20,000 bases of DNA, from the IMG/VR virus record IMGVR_UViG_3300047094_001085; one strand, given 5' to 3'. This document shows, one piece after another, positions 2,664-20,000 of the stretch (position 1 is the stretch's first letter; each line of letters starts with the position of its first letter). The notes under the pieces are model-generated. The model worked only from the letters and a program-made list of their open reading frames with translations. It was not told where the DNA came from and did no database searches. The DNA is from an uncultured virus (IMG/VR IMGVR_UViG_3300047094_001085) (lineage: Duplodnaviria > Heunggongvirae > Uroviricota > Caudoviricetes). The position numbers were made by a program, and so were the translations under genes.

Positions 2664-2664
2664 T

Positions 2665-4733: not shown

Positions 4734-5329
4734 ACCAATCCTGTCGAACCAAATCCGTTACTACCTCTTTCTTTATCAATTACTTCTTCTCTTTGGTCCA
4801 AATGAACCCAACCCCCATTTACAACGGGACACAATACCGCTTGACCAAATTTCATACCTTTATGGATAGTTACGGGGTGATTGTTGGTGTTAAAAATAAT
4901 TCCCTTAACTTCTCCGGTATAACCATTATCAACAGTCCCCGGTGAGTTTAAAACCATAAGTCCTTGATTGATTGCCAATCCACTTTTAGTTCTAACTTGT
5001 ATTTCATAACCATCTTTAATATCGAATGATAATCCACTTGGAACTAATGCTCTACCAAAAGGTTCAATTGTAACCTCTTCTACGGAGTGTAAGTCAAAAC
5101 CTGAATCACTATCGTAATTATATTTTGGAGTTACTGCGTCAGGATGAATTTTTACAAACCCTAATGGTAGTTTAGTTCTTGAATTCATCATATCATCCTC
5201 AAGTTGTTTTAAGTCAAGTCCAAATTCTCCCATTATTTCTTCATAGGATAGTTCATCCAAATCAATGTTGGCCATTCGTTTTAATTCTTCGGCCTTATTT
5301 TTTAAGAAATCTAAATCTTCGTTTAACAT
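4730..5329 (-). CDS. dut: Trimeric dUTPase with an acidic N-terminal extension of about 50 aa
   Basis: All five motifs are present: SGFDL, RTKSGL, GTVDNGYTGE, KFGQAV and RGSNGFGSTG. Confidence 0.96.
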   Translation of the reverse strand: MLNEDLDFLKNKAEELKRMANIDLDELSYEEIMGEFGLDLKQLEDDMMNSRTKLPLGFVKIHPDAVTPKYNYDSDSGFDLHSVEEVTIEPFGRALVPSGLSFDIKDGYEIQVRTKSGLAINQGLMVLNSPGTVDNGYTGEVKGIIFNTNNHPVTIHKGMKFGQAVLCPVVNGGWVHLDQREEVIDKERGSNGFGSTGLV

Positions 5330-6039
5330 TATTCTAAATTTTTTAATTTTTTTATTAAATCAATCAATACTAACACATCACGTTCACAGTATGCAGATAT
5401 CTCTTCTAACATATTTTTATTCCAATATGCGTCGTGTACTTTATCTCCGGTAACATCACCTTCTTTTGGGGAAGGGACTTCCATTGAAGTACACATTAAA
5501 TCCAATGAACCAATTGCGGTATATGCTCCGTATTGCCAAATTTCTCTGGTATCAATAGCTTTTACTTCCCACGGTTTTGTATCATAAGATGGTAGAATCG
5601 ATGGGGGTAATAATCCGTTGATTATCATTCTTTTTGCTGTCATTGGAATATCAAAGTTTTTTAAATTGTGACCACATAGGAAAAAATCTAATTTTCCGCA
5701 ACGTTCTAATAAATTTTGACATTCTTTTAATAATACTTTCTCATCATCACCTGAAAACGTTTGTTTTTTAATCTCACCATTTTCCATTACAAAGGCAACA
5801 CTCATACAAACAATTTTTGCGAATTCAGGAACTAATGCGGTTCTTGTTGCAAATACGTGATTTTTTTGGTTTACTTCAATTTCCTTATCTTCAGGAAAAC
5901 GTTTTAAGAACCAATCGTAATATTTGTCAAATTGTTTCGATAATTCAGGTCTTTTTTCTAAACAAGTGTCGTAATCTTTTTCAATTCCAACTGTTTCAAT
6001 ATCTAAAAATAATATTTTGGTTAATGGTATTTTAATCAT
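5329..6039 (-). CDS. Stand-alone DnaQ/DEDDy 3'-5' exonuclease (PolB-exonuclease related)
   Basis: ExoI LFLDIETV, ExoII GHNLKNFD and ExoIII YCERDV. KPWEV..DT..W and PSPK...G..V segments are as in Bacteroidota homologues I recall. Confidence 0.9.
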   Translation of the reverse strand: MIKIPLTKILFLDIETVGIEKDYDTCLEKRPELSKQFDKYYDWFLKRFPEDKEIEVNQKNHVFATRTALVPEFAKIVCMSVAFVMENGEIKKQTFSGDDEKVLLKECQNLLERCGKLDFFLCGHNLKNFDIPMTAKRMIINGLLPPSILPSYDTKPWEVKAIDTREIWQYGAYTAIGSLDLMCTSMEVPSPKEGDVTGDKVHDAYWNKNMLEEISAYCERDVLVLIDLIKKLKNLE

Positions 6040-6487
6040 TTGATTCTAAATTTTTTATAATGTCCGGATTTTGTTTGATTGTTTGTTTTGTAATTAAATC
6101 TTTAATTTTGGTTGTTGACCAATTGTGAGACCTTGTTGTGTAAATTACTTTGATTGGTAAATGGTCACCGGTAAATCTTTTACCGATGTAATCATCCCCC
6201 AATATTCTAATATCAGGTTTGTAAAATTCCATTAATTGAATCAAATCTTCTTCAGTTTGATAAGTTACTACCTCATCAATGTATTTGATTGACATTAATG
6301 TTTTATATCGTTCATATAATGGAATTACAGGTTTATATTTTGTAAATCTAGTCTCTGAAGGGTCTCTCTGTAAAAAAACCATAAAATAGTCACAATGACG
6401 TTTAGCCTCTTCAAAGGTATAGATATAACCCGGGTGAAGTAAGTCAAAATTACCTGCGGTAAAACCAATTGTTTTTTTTGTATTCAT
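6032..6487 (-). CDS. Cytidylyltransferase-like nucleotidyltransferase (TagD / glycerol-3-phosphate cytidylyltransferase family)
   Basis: GNFDLLHPGY (HxGH variant), ERY..L.SIKYIDEV, LGDDY and RSHNWSTTKIK (RTxxxSTT motif). Confidence 0.88.
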   Translation of the reverse strand: MNTKKTIGFTAGNFDLLHPGYIYTFEEAKRHCDYFMVFLQRDPSETRFTKYKPVIPLYERYKTLMSIKYIDEVVTYQTEEDLIQLMEFYKPDIRILGDDYIGKRFTGDHLPIKVIYTTRSHNWSTTKIKDLITKQTIKQNPDIIKNLESND

Positions 6488-6489
6488 TT

Positions 6490-7710
6490 TTATTTAATTA
6501 AACTTTTGTAAAATTCTGCTCTTGTAACAGTAACATTATTAAGGTCATATTTGTCTTTTACTGTGTTATATAATCTCTCACCTAGTTCAGTTATCATTTC
6601 AGGATTTTGAACTAATTTTTTAATTGATTTTGACCAATCACTATGGTTTCTACTTTCAGGAATTAAAATAGCATTTCCATCGGCAGTAAATTCACCATTC
6701 TTTAAACAATGTTTTAAATCAATTGTGTATGGGCCAATTTCTGAAGCAATCAATGCTTTTTTATAGAACCCCGCCTCAATCACTTTTAATTGTGATTTCA
6801 TTCTGTTGAAGATGTGATTTTTAATTGGTGCCAAAGATATGTCAAATTTTGAATAATTCATAGCGTAAGAGTTAACAGGTTTTGTCCAAACTCTAACGTA
6901 AGGTAATTCTTTATCTGAAATATAGTTTTCATCTTTAAATTCCTTTAAAAATTTAATATAATTTTCATCTAACGTTTTATAATTGTTTGTAAAAATTCCC
7001 TCATAATTAACCCACACTGTTTCGTGAGGTAAAATATCTCTTTTCTTTTGTTCTCCGGTGGTTGGATTAATTTCAGTTACAGAACCTCTTGTATCGAACC
7101 CACAAATTACATATTGTAATTTATCGTTGATGTCTTGATTCTTTTGAACAAACGCGTCTAATAAACCTAAATCGTGTAAGTGAGATGAACCTCCTAACCA
7201 ACCAATTCTAATTTTATCAGATGGTGGTGTCACTTGATTAAATTGAGGTTCTTTAGGGTCGATTGCGTTTGGTAACACCAATACATTCTTATTGAGTTTA
7301 CGAATTTCATTTGCAAATATATCCGTTGTTGTTGTTACCCAATCAGCTTCTTTTAAGTTTGCAACAATTTTTTCGTGAATTTTGTTTTGTACAATAATAC
7401 TGTGGATTGGGTGGTCAACAGTAGGTAACCAATAATCATCAATATCAATAATAACAACTTTACCAATCGACTTTAAATACTTAATGATTGATGGTGTTTG
7501 GTCGTAATGACTACCGATGTTTCGGTGTACGTGAATAATTTGGTATTTGTCCCAATATTTAATATCGTTTATCTTAGGTTCGTAATCAATATCAACGTGA
7601 AAATCGTCAGGATATAAATTTTGTAAGAACACGTGAGGGTCAATAGACCTGAATTTACCAACTCCGGTTTTATCTGAAGGGAGTACTAAAACATTAATTT
7701 TTTCTTTCAT
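6490..7710 (-). CDS. GT-B fold (GT4-like) glycosyltransferase
   Basis: GVGKFR..P, DIDDYW, ADWVTTTT, VLPNAID, IGWLGGSSHLHDL and DISLAP....FNRMKSQLKVIEAG.....IAS...PY. Confidence 0.9.
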   Translation of the reverse strand: MKEKINVLVLPSDKTGVGKFRSIDPHVFLQNLYPDDFHVDIDYEPKINDIKYWDKYQIIHVHRNIGSHYDQTPSIIKYLKSIGKVVIIDIDDYWLPTVDHPIHSIIVQNKIHEKIVANLKEADWVTTTTDIFANEIRKLNKNVLVLPNAIDPKEPQFNQVTPPSDKIRIGWLGGSSHLHDLGLLDAFVQKNQDINDKLQYVICGFDTRGSVTEINPTTGEQKKRDILPHETVWVNYEGIFTNNYKTLDENYIKFLKEFKDENYISDKELPYVRVWTKPVNSYAMNYSKFDISLAPIKNHIFNRMKSQLKVIEAGFYKKALIASEIGPYTIDLKHCLKNGEFTADGNAILIPESRNHSDWSKSIKKLVQNPEMITELGERLYNTVKDKYDLNNVTVTRAEFYKSLIK

Positions 7711-7730
7711 AGTTTAATATTATAACAGAA

Positions 7731-7759
7731 AGTATAATTAAAGAGTGTTAGAATATCAA
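7731..7759 (-). promoter_or_regulatory. Sigma70-like promoter for the glycosyltransferase operon
   Basis: The minus strand reads TTGATA (7759-7754), a 17-nt spacer, then TATACT (7736-7731), 20 nt upstream of ATG 7710 and just downstream of a terminator. The AT-rich background lowers specificity. Confidence 0.6.
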
Positions 7760-7770
7760 CTATTAAGAAA

Positions 7771-7800
7771 TAAAAAACCCCCAAGTTTCCTTGAGGGTTT
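7771..7800 (-). terminator. Rho-independent terminator
   Basis: Minus-strand RNA AAACCCUCAAG-GAAA-CUUGGGGGUUUUUU: stem with one G-U pair, a GAAA tetraloop and a U tract, about 20 nt after the stop of 7822..8415. Confidence 0.85.
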
Positions 7801-7821
7801 AGTTTTTAGAGTAAATAAAGT

Positions 7822-8415
7822 TTAAGATATTTTTTTAATCTTAGTAACCTTACCCTCAAATATATGCTTTCCTACTTTAAAAGAAAATACTTCGTTTGAT
7901 TTTTGTGTTGATTCGGCTAAAATTCCGTTTTCTTGTAGTACTTCCTCTACAACTTCTTTTAACATATCTCTTAATTGTTTGTTATTGAAGTTAGATTGAG
8001 GTTGAGTTTGTTCTTGTACTTTTTGTTTTGGTTGACCTACTTGATTGCCTCTTGCGTCTGTGTTCATTAATCTTGCTGCTTTATCAATTAAGTCATTAGA
8101 TAGAGTTGGTCCACCCATACCTGCCGGCTGAGCTATTGGATGTTCAATCATCAATCGTTTAATCTCATCCGGTAATTTTGAAGCCATAACTCTATCTTGA
8201 GTCATTGGTTGGTTAACTTGTTGTACCGGTACTGAGGCTTCTTGTAACATATCTTGAGGTAAGTTATAAGTTGCCGGAGGAGCATTGTATGTTGCAACTT
8301 CAGGTGTACTATATGTGTCCATAGATGGTAGACCACCTCTTGGTGTTTGATTATGTTTTTCCATTATTTGTTTGGAAATCATAAGTTTTTGAATTAAATC
8401 ATTTTCGCTTGTCAT
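7822..8415 (-). CDS. Hypothetical protein (Q/P/M-rich, largely disordered, basic C-terminal beta hairpin)
   Basis: 197-aa ORF coupled to the upstream gene. C-terminus FKVGKHIFEGKVTKIKKIS. No family recognised. Confidence 0.75.
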   Translation of the reverse strand: MTSENDLIQKLMISKQIMEKHNQTPRGGLPSMDTYSTPEVATYNAPPATYNLPQDMLQEASVPVQQVNQPMTQDRVMASKLPDEIKRLMIEHPIAQPAGMGGPTLSNDLIDKAARLMNTDARGNQVGQPKQKVQEQTQPQSNFNNKQLRDMLKEVVEEVLQENGILAESTQKSNEVFSFKVGKHIFEGKVTKIKKIS

Positions 8416-8416
8416 A

Positions 8417-9097
8417 TTATTTTTTAATTAAACTTTGAGATTGTTGGATTAGTTCTGAAACTTTTGGTCTTAAATCATTTTTTTCTTGATTGGATAAATT
8501 TCTACGAATTTTATCTTCAATACCAGCATATATTCTTTTATATGATTCTGCGGCTTTAGATAAATCAACACCTTCTAATGAATCGGCACCATCTTTCTCA
8601 ATAATATCATTAATCATATCATTAACTGTGGTGATAATTACATCATCAATTACATCATTAACTTCAACTTCAGTTTCTGGTGTAGTTGGTTCAGGTTCTT
8701 GTTGTGGTGTGACTTGAGAAAAATCAGCATTAATAATAACACGATTCATACTTTTATCACCATTTGGATTGTAGTTTGGTTTTGGTTCGTTAAATGTCTC
8801 ACCTGTTGGTTTAAAAGAGAATATTTTGTCCGCTCTGAAAAGCCTCCATCCCGGTAAAGGTTGTTCACCTAAATACGCGGTGTGTGATGCTCCTTGAGAG
8901 TCCCACGCTCTTACAACAGGATTATCCGCTTTTGAATAACCAAAACAAACCGGTTCAATTAAACGTAATCCACGTCCACCTGGTTCATCCCCATCATAGT
9001 AAATTATAATCTTATCTCGTTTTTTTATAGCGTCGACTATAGAGTCAACTGACGCTATTTCTAAAATAAGTGATTTAAATGTGTTGTAAAGTTTCAT
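8417..9097 (-). CDS. WYL-like domain protein lacking an HTH, with an acidic linker and helical C-terminus
   Basis: AIKKRDKIIIYY...RLIEPVCFG...VRAWD...WRLFRADKI fits the WYL consensus (I.Y...R.V.P......Y+.A.....R.FR+DRI). Confidence 0.72.
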   Translation of the reverse strand: MKLYNTFKSLILEIASVDSIVDAIKKRDKIIIYYDGDEPGGRGLRLIEPVCFGYSKADNPVVRAWDSQGASHTAYLGEQPLPGWRLFRADKIFSFKPTGETFNEPKPNYNPNGDKSMNRVIINADFSQVTPQQEPEPTTPETEVEVNDVIDDVIITTVNDMINDIIEKDGADSLEGVDLSKAAESYKRIYAGIEDKIRRNLSNQEKNDLRPKVSELIQQSQSLIKK

Positions 9098-9390
9098 TAT
9101 GCACTTGGAGTTGTGTATGGTTTTACTTCTTTGTATTTGTTAACAACTATTTCAGATTTTCTTTCCATAATGTCTTGAATTGCACCCGCACCTTGGTTAT
9201 AAACATCTAAAAATCCACCAGTACCTTTACCTTGTTCATCACCATCGGCTAAAGCGTCAGGATTAACTGATGAGTATTGATTTGTGATTTTAAAGTCATT
9301 CTTTGGGAATAACATTTTTCTTTGCATATCCGCAATTGCTGATAATTCATTTTCAGGTTGTGCGAAATCTAAAGGTTCTAAATTTGCCAT
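9097..9390 (-). CDS. Hypothetical protein
   Basis: 97-aa ORF whose stop overlaps the next start (TAATG). Contains DALADGDEQGKGTG. Confidence 0.7.
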   Translation of the reverse strand: MANLEPLDFAQPENELSAIADMQRKMLFPKNDFKITNQYSSVNPDALADGDEQGKGTGGFLDVYNQGAGAIQDIMERKSEIVVNKYKEVKPYTTPSA

Positions 9391-9391
9391 A

Positions 9392-9862
9392 TTAAATTAT
9401 TTTTTTTATTAATTCGTTTATTCTTTTTAAACTTTCTGTAATATCTTTGTTAATATTACCGGTGGTTGAACTATGACTTTTACTTTGTCTATTCATTGTA
9501 TTTAAATTATCTTTAGTGTGAGTTTGTATAAATTGATTTGGTAAAACTTCAGATTTTGATTTCTTACCCATATATACGTTATTTCTCATTCCACCTAATG
9601 TGTCGTTAACCCAATTTTTTACATAGTGTCCACCATTCAAAATAAAAGGTAAATCGTTTTCTAAACCATTAAAGTTATCAAACCAATTTTTCATTCGTTT
9701 TAATTGTTGATAAGTGGTTTCACGACTATCTCTTAATTCTTGATTTCTTTTAAATCCTTCAATGGTTGAATCATCTGTGTTTGCAGAATCAAAGCATTGT
9801 TGTAAATATTCTACAACATCTTCAGGTAATTGAACGGTATTTCCATATAAATCCTTATTCAT
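9392..9862 (-). CDS. Hypothetical phage protein
   Basis: 156-aa ORF. G..R..EL......YQQLKRMKNWF...GG....WV resembles an uncharacterised phage family. C-terminus ITESLKRINELI. Confidence 0.7.
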   Translation of the reverse strand: MNKDLYGNTVQLPEDVVEYLQQCFDSANTDDSTIEGFKRNQELRDSRETTYQQLKRMKNWFDNFNGLENDLPFILNGGHYVKNWVNDTLGGMRNNVYMGKKSKSEVLPNQFIQTHTKDNLNTMNRQSKSHSSTTGNINKDITESLKRINELIKKII

Positions 9863-10685
9863 TAGATTTTAACGCTTTGATTAACATATTGATACTGATA
9901 CCTTCTTTATCGGCGATTTTTTTAATTGATTGAATATTTTTCAATAATATTTTACTTATTCCTTTATCTTTTACTACATCGGAATTATTTGACGATTTTT
10001 TGGTTAACATATCCTCAACCATTTTAATCATTTTTTTTCTTTGTTGTTCTTCAATACTATCTTTTTCAGACAATCTTTGTTTTAATTCACCATCTTCTCT
10101 TTTTTGTTTTGGTAATTTACCAAATTGTTTAGCTCTTTCAATCGCATTCTCAACACCCATTTCTTTAAGTGTTTTAACCGTATCTTTAAAATCCATATCT
10201 TTGGTTTCTTCATACCCAAATGCTTCAGAATAGTCAACCTCATTAATGACTTCATCAGAACCTTCTTCACTTTCACCATAATAAACTCTATAACCTCTAG
10301 TAAGTGGGTCGTTTGTAATTCTCGCCATAGCCACGGTCTGGTCCATAGTTTTATGAGGTGTTAAGGTTTGGTTAAGATATGGTATTTTTGAACTTAACAT
10401 AGTTCCGTCAGAATCAACTAATTCGTCAATTTCTTTTTTAGGTTTAATACTTTTTAACTTTTTGGTTAACGCGTTTTTAGAAACTTTTGTTTTAGATTTT
10501 AAAACATTCCCAACAATATTTTTAACTTTTTTAGAATCTTTTTTATCGAAGTCAATTCTCTCATCATTCTTTCGAGATTCAGTTAAAGTATCCGCAATAG
10601 AATAATATAAGGAGATTTTGTCCGCTCTCTCTTTCAAAAAGAAGTAATAATTATTACTATAGTACTCTGTATTAAAATTTATCAT
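9855..10685 (-). CDS. Hypothetical K/E-rich protein
   Basis: 276-aa ORF, first gene of the leftward unit, overlapping the next gene by 8 nt. Confidence 0.75.
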   Translation of the reverse strand: MINFNTEYYSNNYYFFLKERADKISLYYSIADTLTESRKNDERIDFDKKDSKKVKNIVGNVLKSKTKVSKNALTKKLKSIKPKKEIDELVDSDGTMLSSKIPYLNQTLTPHKTMDQTVAMARITNDPLTRGYRVYYGESEEGSDEVINEVDYSEAFGYEETKDMDFKDTVKTLKEMGVENAIERAKQFGKLPKQKREDGELKQRLSEKDSIEEQQRKKMIKMVEDMLTKKSSNNSDVVKDKGISKILLKNIQSIKKIADKEGISINMLIKALKSNE

Positions 10686-10697
10686 ATAACTTTTTCA

Positions 10698-10725
10698 TAT
10701 AAATACTTCGTTTTAATGTATTTAT
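10698..10725. promoter_or_regulatory. Back-to-back GTATTTAT motifs in a 50-bp divergent intergenic region (candidate late promoters)
   Basis: TATAAATAC at 10698-10706 (GTATTTATA on the minus strand) and GTATTTAT at 10718-10725 (+). Each lies 10-12 nt from a start codon. Confidence 0.55.
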
Positions 10726-10735
10726 CATAAAAAAG

Positions 10736-13027
10736 ATGGCACAACAAAATATAAATCAATACGTCTATCCAAATTGGGGTCTAAATTTTGCTTTAGAATC
10801 CTACGATATGTCTTTAACATCCGATGAGAGGGGATACAATGAAGAGGTTGTATTTTCCCCATATTTGATTGCTCAGACCTATGGTAATAGATTACCATTT
10901 TATTTTGACATTAATAATCCATTAAGTGTTCAAGATTTAACATTAACATATAAGGACTACAATCGAAATAATATTTTTGTTTCTCAAAATTTTTACAATC
11001 CTAATGAATTAGATATCACATGTTTTAAATCACATACTTCTTGTGATATTGGATTAACGGGTATTGATAATGGTTTGGTTACTAAAATGACCGGAGAAAC
11101 AATTACATTCACTGAAGGATTATTTTCTGATGACTTAAAATTCAACAGGATGTATTTTGATAGAAGATTAAAATTATTCCAAGTAACCGGAAACACTCAA
11201 TCTCCTAATGTTAGATTTTCAGGGTTTAATAAAACGGTTTTATATGAAGTTGTAAGTAAATATAGTCCTTATGAAGGTAGATACCACGAATTATATGGTG
11301 GATTCTATCAAGGGTTCTATAAATTATTTGGATATGATTACGAAATATTCCCTGAAAGAATGAATAGAGGGTGGTCTGTTGAAATGTTGTTAAAACCAAG
11401 ATTATCTAATGAATATATTCCAACATCGGGAGAAACAACATTAAATAAAATTTACCCACAAAATAAAAACATATTTTTTTATTTAGGGGCAAGAGCGGAA
11501 AATAAATTTTATCATTATGCTAATGGAACACCAAATTGTTTTACGGGGTATACTCGTGTAACATCTGATTTATACAATTGTATTCAAACTTGTGCTTGTT
11601 GTAATAGAACGGTAACGGATAGTAGATGTATCTATGTTTATCCTCCGAGGTCATTATATGGTATTCACGACCCACACGTTAATTATGGATGTCACGAATG
11701 TCGTGGTATTCCTGAACAAAAAATAACTTGTGGTTGTAATTGTAATTTAGACCCGTGTGAATCTTGTGGATGGGAATGTCAGACACATACTTGTGCGTCA
11801 ATTATTGAACCAACTCCAACACCTACACCAACACCGACCTCAACACCGACAAATTGTGTTCCGACTACACCAACGTGTACGGAAACTTGTAGTGATTGTA
11901 ATCCTTGTTATGATTTTGGTAATTGTGAAACTTGTGTACCTACGGGATATTCATCAATAGAATATACGTGTGAAACAAATCCATTGTTTGATGCTATGTC
12001 TAACGCATTATCGTTTAAATTATGTGGTGACCCTAAAAACCCTCAAATAGGTGTTAAGGTTTTAAGATTTACCGGTGGTTGTGAAACTAGTGGAACTTGT
12101 TCGACTAGTGGATTAACTTATACAACAGGATATACGGTTACAGAATATTGTTCGCCTGGTGGAATTTATCCAACTTGTTACACAGAAAACCCTGCGTGGT
12201 TAGATGAGGAACATTGGTTTCAATTAGACGCTGTATGGGAAAGATACACTTGGCTTGATGATTGTGATTTATGGTATAGAGGTGGATTGGGTATTATTAC
12301 TCAAGAACAATATTTAGAATCATTAGCTCATAACTCGGTATCATTAATTACCATACCATATACCTCACAATTAAACATCGACCCAGCAAAAATTGAATTG
12401 GTTAATTTAAATGCAAGATGGTTAGAGGAAGAAAAATACAGAAGAGGAAGATTAAAAATTTATATTAATGGTAAAATATTTTATACCATAGAAGATTTTC
12501 AAGAGATAATACCAAGAGCGTTAAGTACTGATAAGGAAAAACAAGTTGGTGTTCCTTTTAATATATCATGGGGTGGCGGAACTCAAGGTTTACGAGAAAA
12601 TTTAACATTCTCATCTTGTACATTACCTAATGGACCATATCAACAAGACCCTGAATGTTTCCCTGTTAATGATTTGACAGGAACAACATTTAATGGTATG
12701 AACACAAATATTGTTATTGAACAAAATTTTGCGGGAACATTTGAAGGAGGAATCTCTCAATTTAGAATGTATGTAACGCCATTATCGGCTCCGGAAGTTA
12801 AACACAATTTTAATATATTGAAAAATACATTTAGAATGTTTAATCCTGATTGTCCTGATTGTAGTACGGAAATTTGTCCTCCGGATGATTTTACCTACAC
12901 AATAGGTGATATCTCAACTACAACAACAACAACTATTCCTGTAACGACTACAACAACAACTATTCCGATAACGACCACAACTACAACAATACCTGTAACA
13001 ACAACGACAACAACAATAATACAATAA
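10736..13027 (+). CDS. Putative virion structural protein: LamG/concanavalin-like beta-sandwich interrupted by a Cys-rich, PT-containing insert, with a Thr-rich tail
   Basis: LamG-like segments GWSVEMLLKP, WFQLDAVW, GRLKIYINGK, ISWGGG and FEGGISQFRMYVTPLSAPEVKHNF. About 28 Cys are encoded in 11537-12178. Confidence 0.65.
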   Translation: MAQQNINQYVYPNWGLNFALESYDMSLTSDERGYNEEVVFSPYLIAQTYGNRLPFYFDINNPLSVQDLTLTYKDYNRNNIFVSQNFYNPNELDITCFKSHTSCDIGLTGIDNGLVTKMTGETITFTEGLFSDDLKFNRMYFDRRLKLFQVTGNTQSPNVRFSGFNKTVLYEVVSKYSPYEGRYHELYGGFYQGFYKLFGYDYEIFPERMNRGWSVEMLLKPRLSNEYIPTSGETTLNKIYPQNKNIFFYLGARAENKFYHYANGTPNCFTGYTRVTSDLYNCIQTCACCNRTVTDSRCIYVYPPRSLYGIHDPHVNYGCHECRGIPEQKITCGCNCNLDPCESCGWECQTHTCASIIEPTPTPTPTPTSTPTNCVPTTPTCTETCSDCNPCYDFGNCETCVPTGYSSIEYTCETNPLFDAMSNALSFKLCGDPKNPQIGVKVLRFTGGCETSGTCSTSGLTYTTGYTVTEYCSPGGIYPTCYTENPAWLDEEHWFQLDAVWERYTWLDDCDLWYRGGLGIITQEQYLESLAHNSVSLITIPYTSQLNIDPAKIELVNLNARWLEEEKYRRGRLKIYINGKIFYTIEDFQEIIPRALSTDKEKQVGVPFNISWGGGTQGLRENLTFSSCTLPNGPYQQDPECFPVNDLTGTTFNGMNTNIVIEQNFAGTFEGGISQFRMYVTPLSAPEVKHNFNILKNTFRMFNPDCPDCSTEICPPDDFTYTIGDISTTTTTTIPVTTTTTTIPITTTTTTIPVTTTTTTIIQ
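12917..13024 (+). repeat. Coding 27-bp repeat x4 encoding TTTTTTI(P/I)(V/I/Q)
   Basis: Translates as TTTTTTIPV TTTTTTIPI TTTTTTIPV TTTTTTIIQ, with synonymous variation between units. Confidence 0.9.
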
Positions 13028-13037
13028 GTAAATTAAT

Positions 13038-13463
13038 ATGTCACAGTCAATAATAATTAGAAGTATAAATTACGATGGGGAGATTGCCAATATAATCTTT
13101 ACACCTGACGTTGATAATGTAGTAATTAATTTGGGACAACAAACATTGCCGTTTTTGTTTAGACCTTATTTATTAACACCACCAAGAGATGTTTATGGGG
13201 TGTATACAATTATAGTTATGTTTAATGGTGTCGAATGTCCTAACATTTTAAATGTTCCAAGACCAACCCCAACTCCAACACCAACACCAACTAAAACAAG
13301 TACTCCAACACCAACAGTTACACCAACGGTTACACCAACACCAACATTTGACCCATGTAAAGTTCCGACACCAACTCCAACACCAACAAAAACATCAACA
13401 CCAACACCGACTCGAACACCCACACCAACACCGAGTTGTACCAACCCTTGTGGTTGTTCATAA
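13038..13463 (+). CDS. Small PT-repeat protein (beta-rich N-domain, (PT)n stalk, Cys-containing C-terminus)
   Basis: 141 aa with two PT tracts split by FDPCKV, ending SCTNPCGCS and followed by a terminator. Confidence 0.8.
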
Positions 13464-13470
13464 TAATATT

Positions 13471-13500
13471 AAATCCTCCAATAAAATGGGGGATTTTTTT
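13471..13500 (+). terminator. Rho-independent terminator
   Basis: AAATCCTCCA-ATAAAA-TGGGGGATTT followed by a T run, 7 nt after the stop at 13463. Confidence 0.8.
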
Positions 13501-13558
13501 GTTATATAAGAAAAAAAAATATTGTTTTTAATATTGGTGAGGCAAATACTAATTTCAT

Positions 13559-13578
13559 AAGTATTTATAGGATAAATA
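13559..13578 (+). promoter_or_regulatory. AAGTATTTATA motif upstream of the giant ORF (candidate late promoter)
   Basis: The same 11-mer occurs on the minus strand at 10708-10698. Here it is followed by an inverted ATAAATA (13572-13578). Confidence 0.5.
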
Positions 13579-13593
13579 AGTTTATACATATAG

Positions 13594-16500
13594 ATGGCAA
13601 ATATACCTATTTCACAGTTACCTCAAGCGTTTTCGGCATACCCGGAATCATTGTTAGTTATAGTAAACTATGACCTGGTACCTACAGGACAAACAAATTA
13701 CATATATTATTCAGCATTAACCGCACAATTTAGTTCGGGTACATCGGGTACTTCCGGTACATCAGGTACAAGTGGAAAAAGTTTCATTTGGAAAGGTACT
13801 TGGTCGCCTTCAATTAATTATGATGATGGAGACGTTGTTTATTATAATGGTAGTTCATATCTTGCAACAACAACAATACCTTCAGGTGGAGGTGCTCCGG
13901 ACACTAATTTTAATTGGGGTTTGATTGCTCAAGCAGGAACAAGTGGAACTTCGGGTTCAAGTGGAATAGATGGTACGTCAGGTACAAGTGGAATAGATGG
14001 TACATCAGGAACTAGTGGAACAGATGGTACATCAGGTTCAAGTGGTTCATCAGGAATAAGTGGTTCATCAGGTACATCCGGTTCATCAGGTACATCCGGT
14101 TCATCAGGTATTGATGGGACTTCAGGGACTAGCGGAACAGGTGGGTCTTCAGGAACATCAGGTTCTAGCGGAACATCAGGTTTAAGTGGGACTAGCGGTT
14201 CTTCAGGGACTAGTGGTTCTTCAGGAACTAGTGGTTCTTCAGGTATAAATGGAACATCCGGTACGAGTGGTTCATCGGGTATAAACGGTACTTCAGGTTC
14301 AAGTGGTTCAAGTGGAACAAATGGTACTTCAGGTTCTTCAGGGGCAAGTGGTTCTTCAGGAACGTCAGGGTCTTCAGGAACATCAGGTTCTTCAGGTATA
14401 GACGGAACAAGTGGTTCGTCAGGAACTTCGGGTTCGTCAGGAACAAGTGGTTCGTCAGGAACTTCAGGGTCTAGTGGTATAGATGGAACTAGTGGAACAT
14501 CAGGTTCTTCAGGGACTTCGGGTATAGACGGAACAAGTGGTTCATCAGGAACATCAGGGTCTTCAGGTACAAGCGGAACCAGTGGTTCGTCAGGAACATC
14601 AGGGTCTTCGGGTATAGACGGAACAAGTGGTTCATCAGGAACATCAGGGTCTTCAGGTACAAGCGGAACCAGTGGTTCGTCAGGGACATCAGGTTCATCA
14701 GGAACATCAGGTTCAAGCGGTGTAGATGGAACAAGTGGTTCATCAGGAACATCGGGTTCATCAGGAACTAGTGGTGTTGATGGTACATCAGGTTCTTCAG
14801 GGACATCAGGAACATCAGGTTCTTCGGGAACATCAGGTTCGAGTGGGACAAGTGGTTCTTCGGGGGTTAATGGAACTTCTGGGACTTCAGGTTCTTCAGG
14901 AACGTCAGGGTCATCAGGAACTTCAGGTTTAAGCGGTGTTGATGGAACAAGTGGTTCTTCAGGGACATCAGGTTCAAGTGGAACATCAGGGTCTAGCGGT
15001 ATTGATGGCACTTCAGGCTCAAGCGGTATAGATGGAACTTCAGGAACGTCAGGTTCTTCGGGTTCAAGTGGAACAAGTGGTTCTTCAGGAACATCAGGTT
15101 CATCAGGAACTTCAGGAACGTCAGGTTCTTCGGGTTCAAGTGGAATAGATGGTACTTCAGGTTCAAGTGGAACAAGCGGTTCTTCGGGTACTTCAGGTTC
15201 AAGTGGAACTTCAGGTACAAGCGGCTCAAGTGGAACTTCAGGGTCTTCAGGAACTTCAGGTTCAAGTGGAACTTCAGGGTCTTCAGGAACTAGCGGAATA
15301 GATGGAACTTCAGGTTCATCAGGAACTAGTGGAACTTCGGGTTCTTCAGGAACATCAGGTTCAAGCGGAATAGATGGTACTTCGGGTTCAAGTGGAACAA
15401 GCGGTTCTTCGGGAACATCAGGTTCAAGCGGTGTAGATGGAACTTCAGGTTCTTCAGGAACATCAGGTTCAAGTGGAACATCAGGTTCAAGTGGAACAAG
15501 TGGTTCAAGTGGAACAAGTGGTTCTTCAGGAACTAGCGGTATAGATGGAACAAGTGGTTCATCAGGGACTTCAGGTTCTAGCGGAACAAGTGGTTCATCA
15601 GGAACTTCAGGCTCTTCAGGAACTTCAGGTACAAGCGGCTCAAGTGGAACTTCAGGTTCAAGTGGTTCATCAGGAACTTCTGGTTCAAGCGGTGTAGATG
15701 GGACTTCAGGTTCTTCAGGGACAAGCGGTTCTTCAGGGACTTCAGGGTCTTCAGGAACAAGTGGTACATCAGGGAGTAGTGGTGAAAGTGGGATTTCCGC
15801 AGGACAAGTATACTACTTCAATGAATCACAAAATTCAGATGTTTCAGGATATAAAGTTTTAGCGACAGACCCATCAGGTGCTGCACAACAAACGGTTACA
15901 ACAAATTTAACAGGAAGTCAACAAAATGTGATGGTTTCCGATTACATAACACCACAATTAGGTTTTGCCGTAATTCCGGGTGGTGTACAAAGATTTCATT
16001 TACATTACTTAAAACCGGCGAGTAATGACGATATTGATGCTTATGTTGAAATACAATTAGCTAATTCAACGGGTACCGCTATAGGACCAACAATAACATC
16101 TAATGTTGCGTTAATTGGTTGGGTTAGTGCCGTAATACCGGTCGAAGTTAATGTCGATATTGTATTACCAACAACAACTATAGACCCAACAAACAGAATG
16201 ATTGTTAGGTTATATCTTAGTAATAATGATTCAACAGCGCATTCAGTTGTTTATTATACTGAAGGTAATTCATATTACTCATTTGTATTAACATCAGTTG
16301 GTGCGATTGCGGGCACAAGTGGTACTTCAGGGTCTTCAGGAACTTCAGGTTCATCAGGAACTTCAGGTACAAGCGGCTCAAGTGGAACATCAGGTTCAAG
16401 TGGTATTGATGGAACAAGTGGTTCGTCAGGAACATCAGGGTCAAGTGGAACTTCAGGTTCTTCAGGTATAGATGGAACAAGTGGTTCGTCAGGAACTTCA

Positions 16501-19500
16501 GGTTCAAGCGGGACAAGTGGTTCTTCAGGTATAGATGGAACATCGGGCTCAAGTGGAACAAGTGGTTCTTCAGGTATAGATGGTACAAGTGGTTCTTCAG
16601 GAACATCAGGTTTAAGCGGTGTTGACGGAACAAGTGGTACATCAGGTTCTTCAGGAACATCAGGTTCTTCAGGTATAGATGGCACATCAGGTACTTCAGG
16701 TTCATCAGGAACTAGTGGTATAGATGGTACATCAGGTTCAAGTGGAACAAGTGGTTCTTCAGGTTCTAGTGGTACATCAGGTTCTAGTGGTACATCAGGT
16801 TCTAGTGGTACATCAGGTACAAGTGGTTCTTCAGGAACATCAGGTTCAAGTGGAACAAGTGGTTCTTCAGGAACTTCAGGTTCTTCAGGTATTGACGGAA
16901 CTAGTGGAACAAGTGGTTCATCAGGAACAAGTGGTTCGTCAGGAACTTCAGGTTCAAGCGGAATAGACGGCACATCAGGTTCAAGTGGTTCATCAGGAAC
17001 ATCAGGTTCAAGTGGAATAGATGGGACATCAGGAACATCAGGTTCTTCAGGAACTTCGGGTTCAAGTGGGACTTCAGGTTCAAGTGGGACATCAGGTTCA
17101 AGTGGTGTAGATGGAACTTCAGGTTCAAGTGGGACTAGTGGTTCTTCAGGAACGTCAGGTACAAGTGGTTCTTCAGGAACGTCAGGCTCTTCAGGAACTT
17201 CGGGGACTTCAGGTTCTTCGGGGACTTCAGGTTCTTCGGGAACAAGCGGGTCGTCAGGGACTTCAGGTTCAAGTGGTATAGATGGTACGTCAGGAACAAG
17301 TGGGTCTTCAGGTTCTTCGGGCACAAGTGGTTCTTCAGGAACTTCAGGTTCTTCAGGTATTGACGGAACTAGTGGTACAAGTGGCTCTTCAGGAACATCA
17401 GGTTCAAGTGGTTCATCAGGAACATCAGGTTCAAGTGGAACTAGTGGTTCATCAGGAACATCAGGTACAAGTGGTTCTTCAGGTACAAGTGGTTCTTCAG
17501 GAACATCAGGAACTAGTGGTTCTTCGGGAACATCAGGTTCTTCAGGAACATCAGGAACTAGTGGTTCTTCGGGAACATCAGGTTCTTCAGGTACAAGTGG
17601 TACATCAGGCTCAAGTGGAACATCAGGTTCTTCAGGGATTAATGGAACTTCGGGGACTTCAGGTTCTTCAGGAACATCGGGTTCAAGTGGTACGTCAGGT
17701 TCAAGTGGTACTGATGGTGGTAATCTAACAGCGTCTAACTATGTTGCTAAAGGTGTTAAAGGTGGTACAGCTCAAACTATAACAAATGGGTCTGACCAAG
17801 TCGTAACATTTGTTGATGAATTTGACCCTCAAGGGTGGATTACATCTAATAAGTTTCAACCAACAATTGCGGGATATTATAATATTCAAGTTGCTGTATG
17901 GTGGAATCCTGCGTCAACAACAACAGGTCAAAACAATATTCAGATTAGAAAAAATGGTAGTACACAAGTCGCAATTCAACAATCACCACTTGTGACTACT
18001 GAAGGGTATGGTCAAGAAATTGACATTATAGTGTATTTTAACGGTACAACAGATTATGTTGAAGTCACCGCTTATACATCTAACCCAACATCTCAAAATA
18101 TAAACGGAGCTTCTTCAGGTACTTGGATTACAGGGTCATTAATTGTTGGTGGTGGAACAAGTGGAACAAGTGGTTCTTCAGGAACATCAGGGTCTAGTGG
18201 TACATCAGGAACATCAGGTTCAAGTGGAACTTCAGGTTCTTCAGGGGTAAATGGTACTTCAGGAACATCAGGTTCAAGTGGTTCGTCAGGAACTTCAGGT
18301 TCAAGTGGAACAAGTGGTTCTTCAGGTAATAGTGGAACTTCAGGAACATCAGGGTCTAGTGGGACAAGTGGTTCATCAGGAACTTCAGGAACATCAGGTT
18401 CTAGCGGTACAAGTGGTTCATCAGGTACATCAGGAACATCAGGTTCTAGCGGTACAAGTGGTTCATCAGGTACATCAGGAACATCAGGTTCAAGTGGAAC
18501 AAGTGGTTCATCAGGAACTTCAGGAACATCAGGTTCAAGTGGAACAAGTGGTTCATCAGGTAATAGTGGAACTTCGGGAACTTCAGGTTCAAGTGGAACA
18601 AGTGGTTCTTCAGGTAATAGTGGAACTTCGGGAACTTCAGGTTCAAGTGGAACAAGTGGTTCTTCAGGTAATAGTGGAACTTCGGGAACTTCAGGTTCAA
18701 GTGGAACAAGTGGTTCATCAGGGTCTAGTGGAACAAGTGGTTCATCAGGTTCAAGTGGAACAAGTGGTTCATCAGGTTCTAGCGGTACAAGTGGTTCATC
18801 AGGTAATAGTGGAACTTCAGGGACATCCGGTTCATCAGGGACAAGTGGTTCTTCAGGTAATAGTGGAACGTCAGGTACTTCAGGTTCTAGCGGTACAAGT
18901 GGTTCATCAGGTAATAGTGGAACGTCAGGTACTTCAGGTTCTAGCGGTACAAGTGGTTCATCAGGTAATAGTGGAACTTCAGGGACATCCGGTTCATCAG
19001 GGACAAGTGGTTCATCAGGTTCAAGTGGAACTAGCGGTTCTTCAGGTAATAGCGGAACTTCAGGAACTTCAGGTTCAAGTGGTACAAGCGGTTCATCAGG
19101 AACTTCAGGTTCTAGCGGTACAAGTGGTTCGTCAGGTAATAGTGGAACGTCAGGTACTTCAGGTTCTAGCGGAACAAGTGGTTCATCAGGTTCTAGCGGT
19201 ACAAGTGGTTCATCAGGGTCTAGTGGAACTAGCGGTTCTTCAGGTAATAGCGGAACTTCAGGAACTTCAGGTTCTTCAGGTAATAGTGGAACTTCAGGAA
19301 CATCAGGGTCTAGTGGAACAAGTGGTTCATCAGGTTCAAGTGGAACTAGCGGTTCTTCAGGTAATAGCGGAACTTCAGGAACTTCAGGTTCAAGTGGAAC
19401 AAGTGGTTCTTCAGGAACATCAGGTTCAAGCGGTACTAGCGGTTCATCAGGTAATAGTGGAACATCGGGAACTAGCGGTTCTTCAGGTAATAGTGGAACT

Positions 19501-20000
19501 TCGGGAACAAGTGGTTCATCAGGAACATCAGGTTCGTCAGGTAATAGTGGAACTTCAGGAACTTCAGGTTCGTCAGGTAATAGTGGAACTTCGGGAACAA
19601 GTGGTTCATCAGGAACATCAGGTTCTTCAGGTAATAGTGGGACTTCAGGAACATCAGGTTCGTCAGGTAATAGTGGAACTTCGGGAACAAGTGGTTCATC
19701 AGGAACATCAGGTTCTTCAGGTACTAGTGGGACTTCAGGAACTTCAGGTTCAAGTGGAACAAGTGGTTCATCAGGAACATCAGGTTCGTCAGGTAATAGT
19801 GGAACTTCGGGAACAAGTGGTTCATCAGGAACATCAGGTTCTTCAGGTAATAGTGGGACTTCAGGAACATCAGGTTCGTCAGGTAATAGTGGAACTTCGG
19901 GAACAAGTGGTTCATCAGGAACATCAGGTTCTTCAGGTAATAGTGGGACTTCAGGAACTTCAGGTTCAAGTGGAACAAGTGGTTCATCAGGAACATCAGG
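13594..20000 (+). CDS. Giant (>2135 aa, 3'-truncated) Pro-free Gly-X-Y repeat fibre protein with CBM5/12-like, unassigned beta and C1q-like domains
   Basis: Manual frame +1 translation from ATG 13594: MANIPISQLPQAF...GTSGTSGTSGTSGKSFIWKGTWSPSINYDDGDVVYYNGSSYLA...W, then (G-T/S-S)n blocks. No in-frame stop seen up to 20000. Missing from the ORF track, presumably because it has no stop in the window. Confidence 0.93.
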   Translation, partial: MANIPISQLPQAFSAYPESLLVIVNYDLVPTGQTNYIYYSALTAQFSSGTSGTSGTSGTSGKSFIWKGTWSPSINYDDGDVVYYNGSSYLATTTIPSGGGAPDTNFNWGLIAQAGTSGTSGSSGIDGTSGTSGIDGTSGTSGTDGTSGSSGSSGISGSSGTSGSSGTSGSSGIDGTSGTSGTGGSSGTSGSSGTSGLSGTSGSSGTSGSSGTSGSSGINGTSGTSGSSGINGTSGSSGSSGTNGTSGSSGASGSSGTSGSSGTSGSSGIDGTSGSSGTSGSSGTSGSSGTSGSSGIDGTSGTSGSSGTSGIDGTSGSSGTSGSSGTSGTSGSSGTSGSSGIDGTSGSSGTSGSSGTSGTSGSSGTSGSSGTSGSSGVDGTSGSSGTSGSSGTSGVDGTSGSSGTSGTSGSSGTSGSSGTSGSSGVNGTSGTSGSSGTSGSSGTSGLSGVDGTSGSSGTSGSSGTSGSSGIDGTSGSSGIDGTSGTSGSSGSSGTSGSSGTSGSSGTSGTSGSSGSSGIDGTSGSSGTSGSSGTSGSSGTSGTSGSSGTSGSSGTSGSSGTSGSSGTSGIDGTSGSSGTSGTSGSSGTSGSSGIDGTSGSSGTSGSSGTSGSSGVDGTSGSSGTSGSSGTSGSSGTSGSSGTSGSSGTSGIDGTSGSSGTSGSSGTSGSSGTSGSSGTSGTSGSSGTSGSSGSSGTSGSSGVDGTSGSSGTSGSSGTSGSSGTSGTSGSSGESGISAGQVYYFNESQNSDVSGYKVLATDPSGAAQQTVTTNLTGSQQNVMVSDYITPQLGFAVIPGGVQRFHLHYLKPASNDDIDAYVEIQLANSTGTAIGPTITSNVALIGWVSAVIPVEVNVDIVLPTTTIDPTNRMIVRLYLSNNDSTAHSVVYYTEGNSYYSFVLTSVGAIAGTSGTSGSSGTSGSSGTSGTSGSSGTSGSSGIDGTSGSSGTSGSSGTSGSSGIDGTSGSSGTSGSSGTSGSSGIDGTSGSSGTSGSSGIDGTSGSSGTSGLSGVDGTSGTSGSSGTSGSSGIDGTSGTSGSSGTSGIDGTSGSSGTSGSSGSSGTSGSSGTSGSSGTSGTSGSSGTSGSSGTSGSSGTSGSSGIDGTSGTSGSSGTSGSSGTSGSSGIDGTSGSSGSSGTSGSSGIDGTSGTSGSSGTSGSSGTSGSSGTSGSSGVDGTSGSSGTSGSSGTSGTSGSSGTSGSSGTSGTSGSSGTSGSSGTSGSSGTSGSSGIDGTSGTSGSSGSSGTSGSSGTSGSSGIDGTSGTSGSSGTSGSSGSSGTSGSSGTSGSSGTSGTSGSSGTSGSSGTSGTSGSSGTSGSSGTSGTSGSSGTSGSSGTSGTSGSSGTSGSSGINGTSGTSGSSGTSGSSGTSGSSGTDGGNLTASNYVAKGVKGGTAQTITNGSDQVVTFVDEFDPQGWITSNKFQPTIAGYYNIQVAVWWNPASTTTGQNNIQIRKNGSTQVAIQQSPLVTTEGYGQEIDIIVYFNGTTDYVEVTAYTSNPTSQNINGASSGTWITGSLIVGGGTSGTSGSSGTSGSSGTSGTSGSSGTSGSSGVNGTSGTSGSSGSSGTSGSSGTSGSSGNSGTSGTSGSSGTSGSSGTSGTSGSSGTSGSSGTSGTSGSSGTSGSSGTSGTSGSSGTSGSSGTSGTSGSSGTSGSSGNSGTSGTSGSSGTSGSSGNSGTSGTSGSSGTSGSSGNSGTSGTSGSSGTSGSSGSSGTSGSSGSSGTSGSSGSSGTSGSSGNSGTSGTSGSSGTSGSSGNSGTSGTSGSSGTSGSSGNSGTSGTSGSSGTSGSSGNSGTSGTSGSSGTSGSSGSSGTSGSSGNSGTSGTSGSSGTSGSSGTSGSSGTSGSSGNSGTSGTSGSSGTSGSSGSSGTSGSSGSSGTSGSSGNSGTSGTSGSSGNSGTSGTSGSSGTSGSSGSSGTSGSSGNSGTSGTSGSSGTSGSSGTSGSSGTSGSSGNSGTSGTSGSSGNSGTSGTSGSSGTSGSSGNSGTSGTSGSSGNSGTSGTSGSSGTSGSSGNSGTSGTSGSSGNSGTSGTSGSSGTSGSSGTSGTSGTSGSSGTSGSSGTSGSSGNSGTSGTSGSSGTSGSSGNSGTSGTSGSSGNSGTSGTSGSSGTSGSSGNSGTSGTSGSSGTSGSSGTS
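13783..13926 (+). other. CBM5/12 (ChiC-BD)-like small aromatic module within the giant ORF
   Basis: WKGTWSPSINYDDGDVVYYNGSSYLA...P.....W fits the W....Y..GD.V.Y.G..Y.A...P...W pattern. Confidence 0.75.
13936..15798 (+). repeat. Gly-X-Y block 1 (about 207 triplets; GTS/GSS with periodic GID/GVD/GIN/GLS)
   Basis: 1863 nt = 207 x 9. Gly phase is identical at both ends and no interruption was seen by eye. Confidence 0.92.
15799..16311 (+). other. 171-aa non-repetitive beta-rich domain between blocks 1 and 2
   Basis: AGQVYYFNESQ...YKVLATDP...IPGGVQRFHLHY...YVEIQL...DPTNRMIVRLYL...VVYYTEGNSYYSFVLTS. Alternating hydrophobic strands; no family assigned. Confidence 0.7.
16312..17715 (+). repeat. Gly-X-Y block 2 (about 156 triplets)
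   Basis: 1404 nt = 156 x 9, same vocabulary as block 1 (GTS, GSS, GID, GVD). Confidence 0.92.
17725..18153 (+). other. C1q/TNF-like jelly-roll (trimerisation/adhesin) domain, about 143 aa
   Basis: VTF.DEFD....SNKFQPTIAGYYNIQVAV...IRKNG...IVYFNGTTDYVEV.AY...TWITGSLI fits the gC1q pattern F..P..G.Y.F...L.KNG...L..GD.V...F.G.L. Confidence 0.75.
18154..20000 (+). repeat. Gly-X-Y block 3 (>=205 triplets; GTS/GSS/GNS), runs off the window
   Basis: Gly phase is kept from 18154 to 19999. GNS replaces GID/GVD. Confidence 0.92.

Follow-up and report, generated by a model that had tools for sequence, protein, structure and literature searches.

An uncultured virus record (IMG/VR IMGVR_UViG_3300047094_001085) holds, at the end of the 20,000-nucleotide stretch analysed here (the window), an open reading frame (ORF) built around long arrays of Gly-X-Y triplets in which X is mostly Thr or Ser and Y mostly Ser. 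We propose, at a probability of roughly 0.65, that a T4-like phage from lake water encodes in this ORF a very long homotrimeric collagen-type virion fibre, with a tail or side fibre as the likeliest kind. While collagen-like phage fibres are already established, the composition and the length found here are extreme.

The fibre ORF contains 574 Gly-X-Y triplets in four unbroken runs, 569 of which stand in three long blocks separated by two globular nodes, D2 and D3 (Table 1). A first-pass annotation, made from the letters alone, had reported blocks of about 207, 156 and at least 205 triplets with X and Y almost only Thr or Ser and with no Pro, Lys or Arg; we count 207, 157 and, up to the window end, 205 triplets, and none of the three residues occurs in the long blocks, the sole Lys of the repeat being located in the short run of five triplets. 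In the 569 triplets, X is Thr (281), Ser (221), Ile (29), Asn (23), Val (9), Leu (3) or Ala, Glu or Gly (1 each), which amounts to Thr or Ser in 502 triplets, and Y is Ser (528), Asp (33), Asn (7) or Gly (1). Nearly all Asp residues (31/33) are preceded by Ile or Val, and the resulting GID and GVD triplets, together with GNS, punctuate the arrays at irregular intervals of 1-31 triplets. The Pfam Collagen family (PF01391) matches the ORF with 732.5 bits (cut-off 27.2). The usual stabilisers of collagen, imino acids and Asp/Glu-Lys/Arg pairs, are missing: the 569 triplets hold 0 Pro, 0 Lys and 0 Arg next to 33 Asp and 1 Glu.

The triplet register is strict. Gly is replaced in 0/569 triplets, whereas 108 of the 1138 X and Y positions hold a residue other than the usual Thr/Ser or Ser (Gly versus X/Y departure, Fisher p per block: 7e-10, 2e-6 and 4e-5). 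The DNA units of the repeat are mutually ~60-90% alike, and the arrays draw on five to six Ser codons (TCA, AGT, TCT, TCG, AGC, TCC) and three to four Gly codons (GGT, GGA, GGG, GGC). Given that Gly is never replaced while the DNA units have diverged, the period is maintained in the protein and cannot be put down to a fresh DNA repeat alone. The G+C content of the fibre ORF (0.41-0.49, versus 0.23-0.36 elsewhere in the window) is raised because of its Gly, Ser and Thr codons. The reading frame continues through three non-repeat pieces that are confidently folded by prediction and have many relatives. The ORF is real coding sequence of a T4-like phage and no simple-repeat accident; the repeat itself gives rise to the ORFs found on the other strand of the arrays.

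D3, which lies between blocks 2 and 3, is a jelly roll in the AlphaFold2 (AF2) model, with a predicted local distance difference test score (pLDDT) of 89. Foldseek matches it to the heads of C1QL1 and C1QL3 (target-normalised TM-score (TMt) 0.79-0.81, E about 1e-6, at 11-18% identity to solved heads), and further to TNF-family ligands, BclA (3tyj, 2z5w, 2r6q, 3twi), the phi812 central-spike knob and cyanophage tail-fibre tips. A D3 profile searched against the PDB finds adiponectin (2.5e-5) as well as C1q and C1q-related factor (near 3e-3). The Pfam C1q family (PF00386) does not match D3 of the window and is present in two distant D3 relatives. D3 is thus a predicted C1q/TNF-like jelly roll, in agreement with the internal C1q-like domain recognised at first pass, and the listed proteins of this fold are trimers. 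The only relatives of D3 in cultured phages occur in Pelagibacter podophages, as small proteins whose genes lie two positions 3' of the tail-fibre gene, and in one Methylophilales phage.

Modelling of a block-plus-domain fragment as a trimer, proposed at first pass, was carried out with three copies of residues 1342-1556 (12 triplets, D3 and another 12 triplets; alignment of 34 rows). The model scored 0.93 (0.93, 0.93 and 0.92 in the individual runs), compared to 0.00 for the best of three controls, with at least 85% of contacts agreeing between runs and pLDDT of at least 80; the mark applied is reached by 20/30 proteins solved as one-chain pairs and by 1/23 solved as single chains. Confident inter-chain contacts include both Gly-X-Y flanks, and in one copy they fall at residues 10, 13, 16, 19 and 25, each of which is a Gly position. 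Such period-3 contacts would be the pattern expected of a Gly-cored three-chain helix. Since solved structures include many C1q-like trimers and collagens, the result may also reflect likeness to these.

The other node, D2, is predicted to fold into a beta-sandwich (pLDDT 90.4). Its best Foldseek matches are hydrolases of the CocE/NonD family (query-normalised TM-score (TMq) 0.65-0.68), and the matched region is presumably their C-terminal jelly-roll domain; a phmmer search with D2 returned nothing among PDB sequences. D2 has 332 related cluster representatives at E<=1e-3, and among the best 150 of these, 112 carry at least 10 Gly-X-Y triplets; Pro makes up at least 10% of X/Y residues in 42 of the 112 and is absent in 34. 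D3 shows a similar picture. Seven long proteins have this domain in common, and the four that were examined (P0002, P0005, P0006 and P0007) place it between Pro/Gln-rich repeats of the GPQ/GAQ type, such as GAQGPQGPSG, while P0017 combines D3 with Pro-free GTS/GSS/GAN repeats; two long D3 proteins carry Peptidase_S74 (precomputed Pfam column). In short relatives and fragments, the repeats adjoining D3 read GPQGVQGPAG or GPTGPTGATG, or are Pro-free (GTSGSSGSSGTSGANG). As the same nodes are flanked by either kind of repeat, Pro-free Ser/Thr repeats and ordinary collagen repeats are interchangeable shafts.

In a set of viral contigs, we located 105 D2-encoding stretches, of which 80 loci were kept, yielding 63 distinct ORFs (loci are given L numbers below). 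At least 50 triplets are present in 53 of these ORFs, at least 200 in 23 and at least 500 in seven. Pro is absent from the repeats of 23 of the 53 ORFs with at least 50 triplets and accounts for 2% or less in 45 of them. Several very long ORFs are complete within their contigs, namely L173 (3,989 residues, 1,026 triplets, longest run 563), L164 (3,616 residues, 967 triplets, 1 Pro), L166 (3,343 residues, 892 triplets) and L177 (2,733 residues, 705 triplets). The C-terminus of L164 is a Peptidase_S74 domain (2.3e-15), an intramolecular chaperone of phage tail fibres that is trimeric, and this protein has many matches to tail-fibre families of PHROG. The ORFs L182 (2,845 residues) and L184 (2,673 residues) are complete orthologues of the window fibre, with the N-terminus, the upstream gene, D2 and a D3-like domain in common; both have a short N-terminal run of 6 triplets and end in a ~680-residue Gly/Cys-rich repeat region that matches no family, and Pfam finds no Peptidase_S74 (PF13884) in either. 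The fibre genes of the relatives adjoin genes for tail fibres, tail collar, gp10-like baseplate proteins, tape measure, gp23 and portal, and it is from these relatives and neighbours that we infer the position of the window fibre on the virion.

A third kind of shaft is nearly Pro-free as well: the D2 fibres of L229, L236 and L224 have Gly-X-Gln repeats (GNQ, GEQ, GFQ, GDQ, GYQ) of up to 418 triplets whose Pro content does not exceed 1%, and adjoin Phage Tail Collar and Gp10_C-like baseplate genes. A DNA-pattern scan for four GTS-GSS-like units returned at least 156 stretches, and the longest Gly-X-Y run is Pro-free in 138 of the 156 listed; two of the listed loci, L072 and L081, do not contain Ser/Thr repeats. 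The Pro-free Ser/Thr shaft is therefore common among environmental phages. The fibre had been called unusual at first pass, which is apt when it is compared to the literature searched but not when it is compared to metagenomes.

Some relatives interrupt their arrays. In L166 (residues 2532-3107), Ala occupies the Gly position of one triplet (GSS-ATS-GTS) about every 9-10 triplets, and the distal blocks of L182 and L184 contain 3-residue breaks with the spacing of these Ala triplets. L164 (residues 91-1282) has two-residue breaks (GLS-GA-GTS), whereas the blocks of the window lack any break.

The record nearest to the window, G001, is linear, 47.7 kb long and estimated to be 16% complete; it carries the reverse complement of the window, with all sampled words in common. 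Its other 28 kb encode a T4-type portal (PF07230, 4e-77), a prohead protease (PF03420), a T4-type large terminase, PhoH and several glycosyltransferases. The closest cultured relatives of the portal come from a Microcystis phage (40%) and from Flavobacterium phages (36%), which indicates a distant T4-like lineage. Searches of 50,697 deposited phage records gave no match to positions 1-13600 of the window (megablast), nor to D2, the N-terminal 114 residues of the fibre or its 763-residue upstream neighbour (tblastn). Positions 15700-18200 were found in 20 sequencing runs from 20 studies, at 63-88% of sampled words, and 19 of these runs are labelled lake water.

Collagen repeats that adjoin a trimer of the C1q fold are known from BclA of the Bacillus anthracis exosporium and from animal C1q and adiponectin. 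The repeats of BclA are rich in Thr (GPT) and O-glycosylated. In the window fibre, by contrast, the C1q-like domain lies within the chain and has repeats to either side, X is free of Pro, and glycosylation is only a candidate feature. The T4-like aquatic myovirus P-SSM2 likewise has Gly-X-Y genes that are tail-fibre candidates, orf023 and orf028 (Sullivan et al. 2005, PMC1079782). In these genes we find the triplets GPT, GPP, GPA and GPS, Pro occupying 45/60 and 56/89 X positions, in runs of at most 35 triplets, in contrast to the Pro-free blocks of 157-207 triplets in the window. In the E. coli O157:H7 prophage tail fibres EPclA and EPclB, which were found to be trimers by ultracentrifugation and dumbbells by electron microscopy (Ghosh et al. 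2012, PMC3368898), globular domains of a phage side-tail protein are linked by a Gly-X-Y stalk, as proposed here. However, Pro makes up 48% of X in these proteins, which are also rich in Asp/Glu-Lys/Arg pairs, and the molecule is about 55-62 nm long (PMC3368898); the window fibre has neither Pro nor basic residues in its long blocks, is, with 574 or more triplets, around ten times longer, and has no globular domain in common with them.

Similar in repeat type is Bucl8 of Burkholderia, whose (GAS)19 stretch is free of Pro and charge and gives a triple-helix circular dichroism (CD) signal at 25 C that is lost at 50 C (Grund et al. 2020, PMC7682875). Both proteins set a Gly-small-Ser repeat on a trimeric scaffold, which in the window fibre would be provided by its nodes; Bucl8 is, however, an outer-membrane channel with 6-38 triplets and Ala in X (PMC7682875), and the likeness drawn here is one of repeat type. 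In view of this CD signal (PMC7682875) and of the 23/53 related phage ORFs without Pro, the first-pass annotation overstated the dependence of phage and bacterial collagens on Pro or charge pairs.

How might such a fibre be built? Three chains would be set in register by globular trimer nodes, i.e. by D3, probably also by D2, and by a C-terminal domain beyond the part seen here, and the proline-free (Gly-Thr/Ser-Ser)n stretches between the nodes would form triple helices of the collagen type, the Gly residues lying at the axis. Anchoring to the virion would fall to the short N-terminus, while the distal tip would lie beyond the window, its counterpart in the orthologues being the ~680-residue region. 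Along the shaft, the CBM5/12-like motif, the jelly-roll node and the C1q-like node are candidate sites for binding glycans or surfaces. With the canonical collagen rise, 574 triplets x 3 x ~0.286 nm would give an extended length of ~490 nm, and such great length could widen the capture radius of an adhesive fibre in dilute water.

Several points weigh against this reading. The long tail fibre of T4 measures about 145 nm, and phage fibres are not known to come near the ~0.5 um proposed here. The three-copy model yields confidence, not geometry. The window and G001 disagree in block 3 and both end inside the array, so that neither reaches the C-terminus or the true length of this block. The presumed attachment domain has no recognisable family in Pfam, PHROG or protein-set searches, and no cultured virion displays such a fibre, given that D2 and the N-terminus are unmatched in the deposited phage records. 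A full-text literature search, which largely left out subscription journals, found nothing on (GTS/GSS)n sequences or on phage fibres made of them. Finally, the stability of an unaided helix may be marginal, because the related (GAS)n has a quoted host-guest melting temperature (Tm) of only 33 C and a shallow CD peak (PMC7682875).

A bolder form of the proposal, which we consider unlikely, is a true triple helix of half a micron without Pro or charge pairs that would be stabilised by the low temperature of the habitat, by repeated trimer clamps and by phage-made O-glycosylation (perhaps sulfation) of Ser and Thr, in other words a "phage glyco-collagen" in which this modification would be the task of the large multi-domain glycosyltransferases encoded beside the biggest fibre genes. 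If true, lake phages would bear the longest and chemically simplest natural collagens known. Multi-domain glycosyltransferases (GT1 + GT9, some with an FkbM-type methyltransferase) adjoin the fibre genes of L166, L177, L198 and L180, and GT9 or GT1 genes lie 3' of those of L173 and L186. Downstream of the orthologous fibre genes, at L182:9407-14609 and L184:8762-14145, we find genes for a GT25 enzyme, a cytidylyltransferase-like protein, an adenosine 5'-phosphosulfate (APS) kinase and a sulfotransferase, a set that hints at sulfated glycans or sulfated Ser/Thr. The window has candidate enzymes of its own in the divergent sugar-modifying cluster upstream of its fibre gene (Table 1). A glycosyltransferase gene within 5 kb of the fibre gene (Pfam E<=1e-6) is present at 7/20 Ser/Thr-rich loci and at 1/8 others, a difference that is not significant (Fisher p 0.37). 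Splitting by size gives 5/8 giant Ser/Thr loci versus 3/20 others (p 0.02), a comparison chosen after seeing the data and among related loci; a PHROG scan places glycosyltransferases near 5/15 fibre genes. Glycosylation of the fibre by phage enzymes stays a weak lead.

The same genes could also serve the most serious alternative, which we regard as doubtful. Here, no stable helix would form; the arrays would be flexible, perhaps heavily O-glycosylated, mucin-like tethers that space trimeric nodes, and their period would be a by-product of the expansion of 9- or 18-base DNA units. The near-pure Gly/Ser/Thr composition is typical of flexible linkers, both upstream genes encode (Pro-Thr)n or Thr-rich linkers, 7/20 Ser/Thr-rich loci have a glycosyltransferase gene nearby (Pfam), and the low Tm quoted for a related triplet (PMC7682875) argues in the same direction. 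A linker, however, needs no strict register, and Gly has nevertheless been kept in every long-block triplet despite drift in X and Y and despite DNA units that are only 60-90% alike. The register is also maintained in relatives, with runs of up to 563 triplets, the same nodes sit in Pro-rich collagen repeats elsewhere, and the flanks are in contact in the three-copy model.

Could the giant arrays largely be an assembly artefact, that is, collapsed, expanded or chimeric repeats of several related phages? We consider this improbable. Related repeats co-occur in lake samples, where the summed word depth is tens of times higher across arrays than across domains, and many viral contigs bearing the repeat end inside it. 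Among the listed Logan contigs of runs X1, X2, X3 and X5, none covers an array from end to end, and repeat-to-repeat joints number in the hundreds. Up to base 18662, however, the window is identical to G001, blocks 1 and 2 included. Past this base they differ, with 192 triplets in block 3 of G001 and 205 in that of the window, yet both versions are in frame and keep every Gly. Contig pieces from four lake runs match the window with zero differences at 13118-14009, 15664-16356 and 17664-18186, which span every domain-array junction, and at islands inside blocks 1 and 2 that are unique owing to the divergence of the DNA (14215-14396, 14811-14982 and 17040/17113-17352). Given that junctions and islands were recovered without difference, the architecture is independently recovered except for array lengths and the C-terminus. 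For relatives with 700-1,026 triplets, a single contig contains the entire ORF and genes beyond either end of it. The concern is real only for lengths, mainly that of block 3.

Within window positions 18663-20000, the order of the GNS-marked units also differs from that in G001, which could reflect strain polymorphism by gain and loss of units or an ambiguity of assembly.

Least probable of all is that each chain folds by itself into a polyglycine-II/polyproline-II bundle like that of the snow flea antifreeze protein or of gp38 of phage S16: a Gly-X-X period with small residues fits polyproline-II helices and gp38 sets a precedent for such bundles in phage fibres, but known bundles combine GGX-type motifs with turns between short helices of 6-11 residues (PMC13243192), whereas GGX occurs in 1/574 triplets here, the runs of 157-207 triplets are unbroken and irregularly punctuated, and both the adjacent trimer nodes and the collagen-type relatives point otherwise. 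The first-pass annotation had named both a triple helix and such a bundle, with the C1q-like domain favouring a trimer; the triple-helix branch is now supported by the C1q/TNF-like fold of that domain, by the Pro/Gln-rich repeats around the same nodes in relatives and by the three-copy model, while the bundle is disfavoured.

The rules of collagen stability were derived from sequences that are rich in Pro or hydroxyproline and paired in charge. Here, hundreds of Gly-Thr/Ser-Ser triplets follow one another, their register is conserved across many phages, and they stand beside nodes that in other proteins are flanked by ordinary collagen repeats. Should the triplets prove to form triple helices, they would provide a minimal, easily expressed collagen sequence and show a phage route to adhesive fibres of extreme length in dilute water. 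Otherwise, they would constitute a new class of strictly periodic linker for which an explanation is still needed.

At the proximal end of the fibre, the first 48 residues are ~90% identical, by eye, to the N-termini of L182 and L184, and their role in attachment is presumed from position only. A search of a 5.8-billion-protein set (lengths 1174-3737 only) with the N-terminal region scored 0/974 candidates, yet L182 and L184 carry this region in viral contigs. PHROG tail-fibre families match the N-terminal region at 1e-8 to 3e-5. The motif that follows scores 27.4 bits with Pfam CBM_5_12 when taken as an isolated fragment and 21.0 bits within the whole protein (cut-off 26.2); among PDB sequences it has weak matches to chitin-binding modules (E 0.03-0.6).

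Table 1. Positions of the fibre ORF, its parts and its neighbours in the window, followed by SprB-repeat genes of related contigs (contig named before the colon).
Feature	Position	Strand	Remarks
Fibre ORF, 2135 aa	13594..19998	+	stop-less, cut by window end
N-terminal 48 aa	13594..13737	+	presumed virion-attachment end; no family match
Short Gly-X-Y run, 5 triplets (GTS x4, GKS)	13738..13782	+	aa 49-63
CBM5/12-like (chitin-binding-type) motif, 51 aa	13783..13935	+	aa 64-114; Pfam, PHROG and weak PDB sequence matches
Gly-X-Y block 1, 207 triplets (GTS 97, GSS 80, GID 13, GVD 5, others)	13936..15798	+	aa 115-735; Pro/Lys/Arg 0
D2, 171-aa predicted beta-sandwich (jelly-roll) node	15799..16311	+	aa 736-906; AF2, Foldseek
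Gly-X-Y block 2, 157 triplets	16312..17724	+	aa 907-1377; Pro/Lys/Arg 0
D3, 143-aa C1q/TNF-like jelly-roll node, predicted to trimerise	17725..18153	+	aa 1378-1520; profile, AF2, Foldseek
Gly-X-Y block 3, at least 205 triplets (GTS 103, GSS 78, GNS 23)	18154..20000	+	aa 1521-2135; arrangement uncertain past base 18662
141-aa gene with long (Pro-Thr)n linker, conserved partner of fibre gene	13038..13463	+	orthologue comparison
763-aa Cys-rich protein with TPTPTP and (TTTTTIP)n stretches	10736-13027	+	upstream neighbour
Divergent sugar-modifying gene cluster	3-7710	-	Pfam/PHROG scans
Two-domain GT2-type enzyme	3225-4733	-	
Glycosyltransferase	6490-7710	-	
Cytidylyltransferase-like gene	6032-6487	-	
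FAD/NAD-binding enzyme	1677-2663	-	
Weak epimerase match	3-641	-	
SprB-repeat gene	L166:1386-3515		
SprB-repeat gene	L177:1664-3793		
SprB-repeat gene	L192:1395-5057		
SprB-repeat gene	L194:1342-3498		
SprB-repeat gene	L202:4911-7067		
SprB-repeat gene	L209:4236-6422		

The 141-residue protein encoded immediately upstream of the fibre is ~81% identical over 72 residues to the product of the gene directly 5' of the fibre genes of L182 and L184. Where this gene and many other fibre-upstream genes match PHROG 15511, the match covers the Pro-Thr linker and was discounted as probably compositional. A paralogous stretch (77% over 83 bases) occurs in the same phage record, in a 167-residue gene (L005:7003-7506, minus strand) between the portal and terminase genes. 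The 763-residue neighbour has no sequence match in Pfam, PHROG or the PDB (phmmer for the latter); a protein atlas puts it among clusters of viral (Uroviricota) hypothetical proteins, with a lead to ConA-like/Laminin_G_3 lectins. Genes for a dUTPase and a 3'-5' exonuclease sit amid the sugar-modifying cluster.

At six related loci, a SprB-repeat protein of ~710-730 residues (1,221 in L192) is encoded a few genes upstream of the fibre gene. The contig of L206 carries an IS605 OrfB/Cas12f-like TnpB gene (17052-18962) a few kb from its fibre gene, and in L194, a 2-oxoglutarate (2OG)-Fe(II) oxygenase gene (16930-17514) lies beside a collagen-like structural gene near the Ser/Thr-rich fibre gene.

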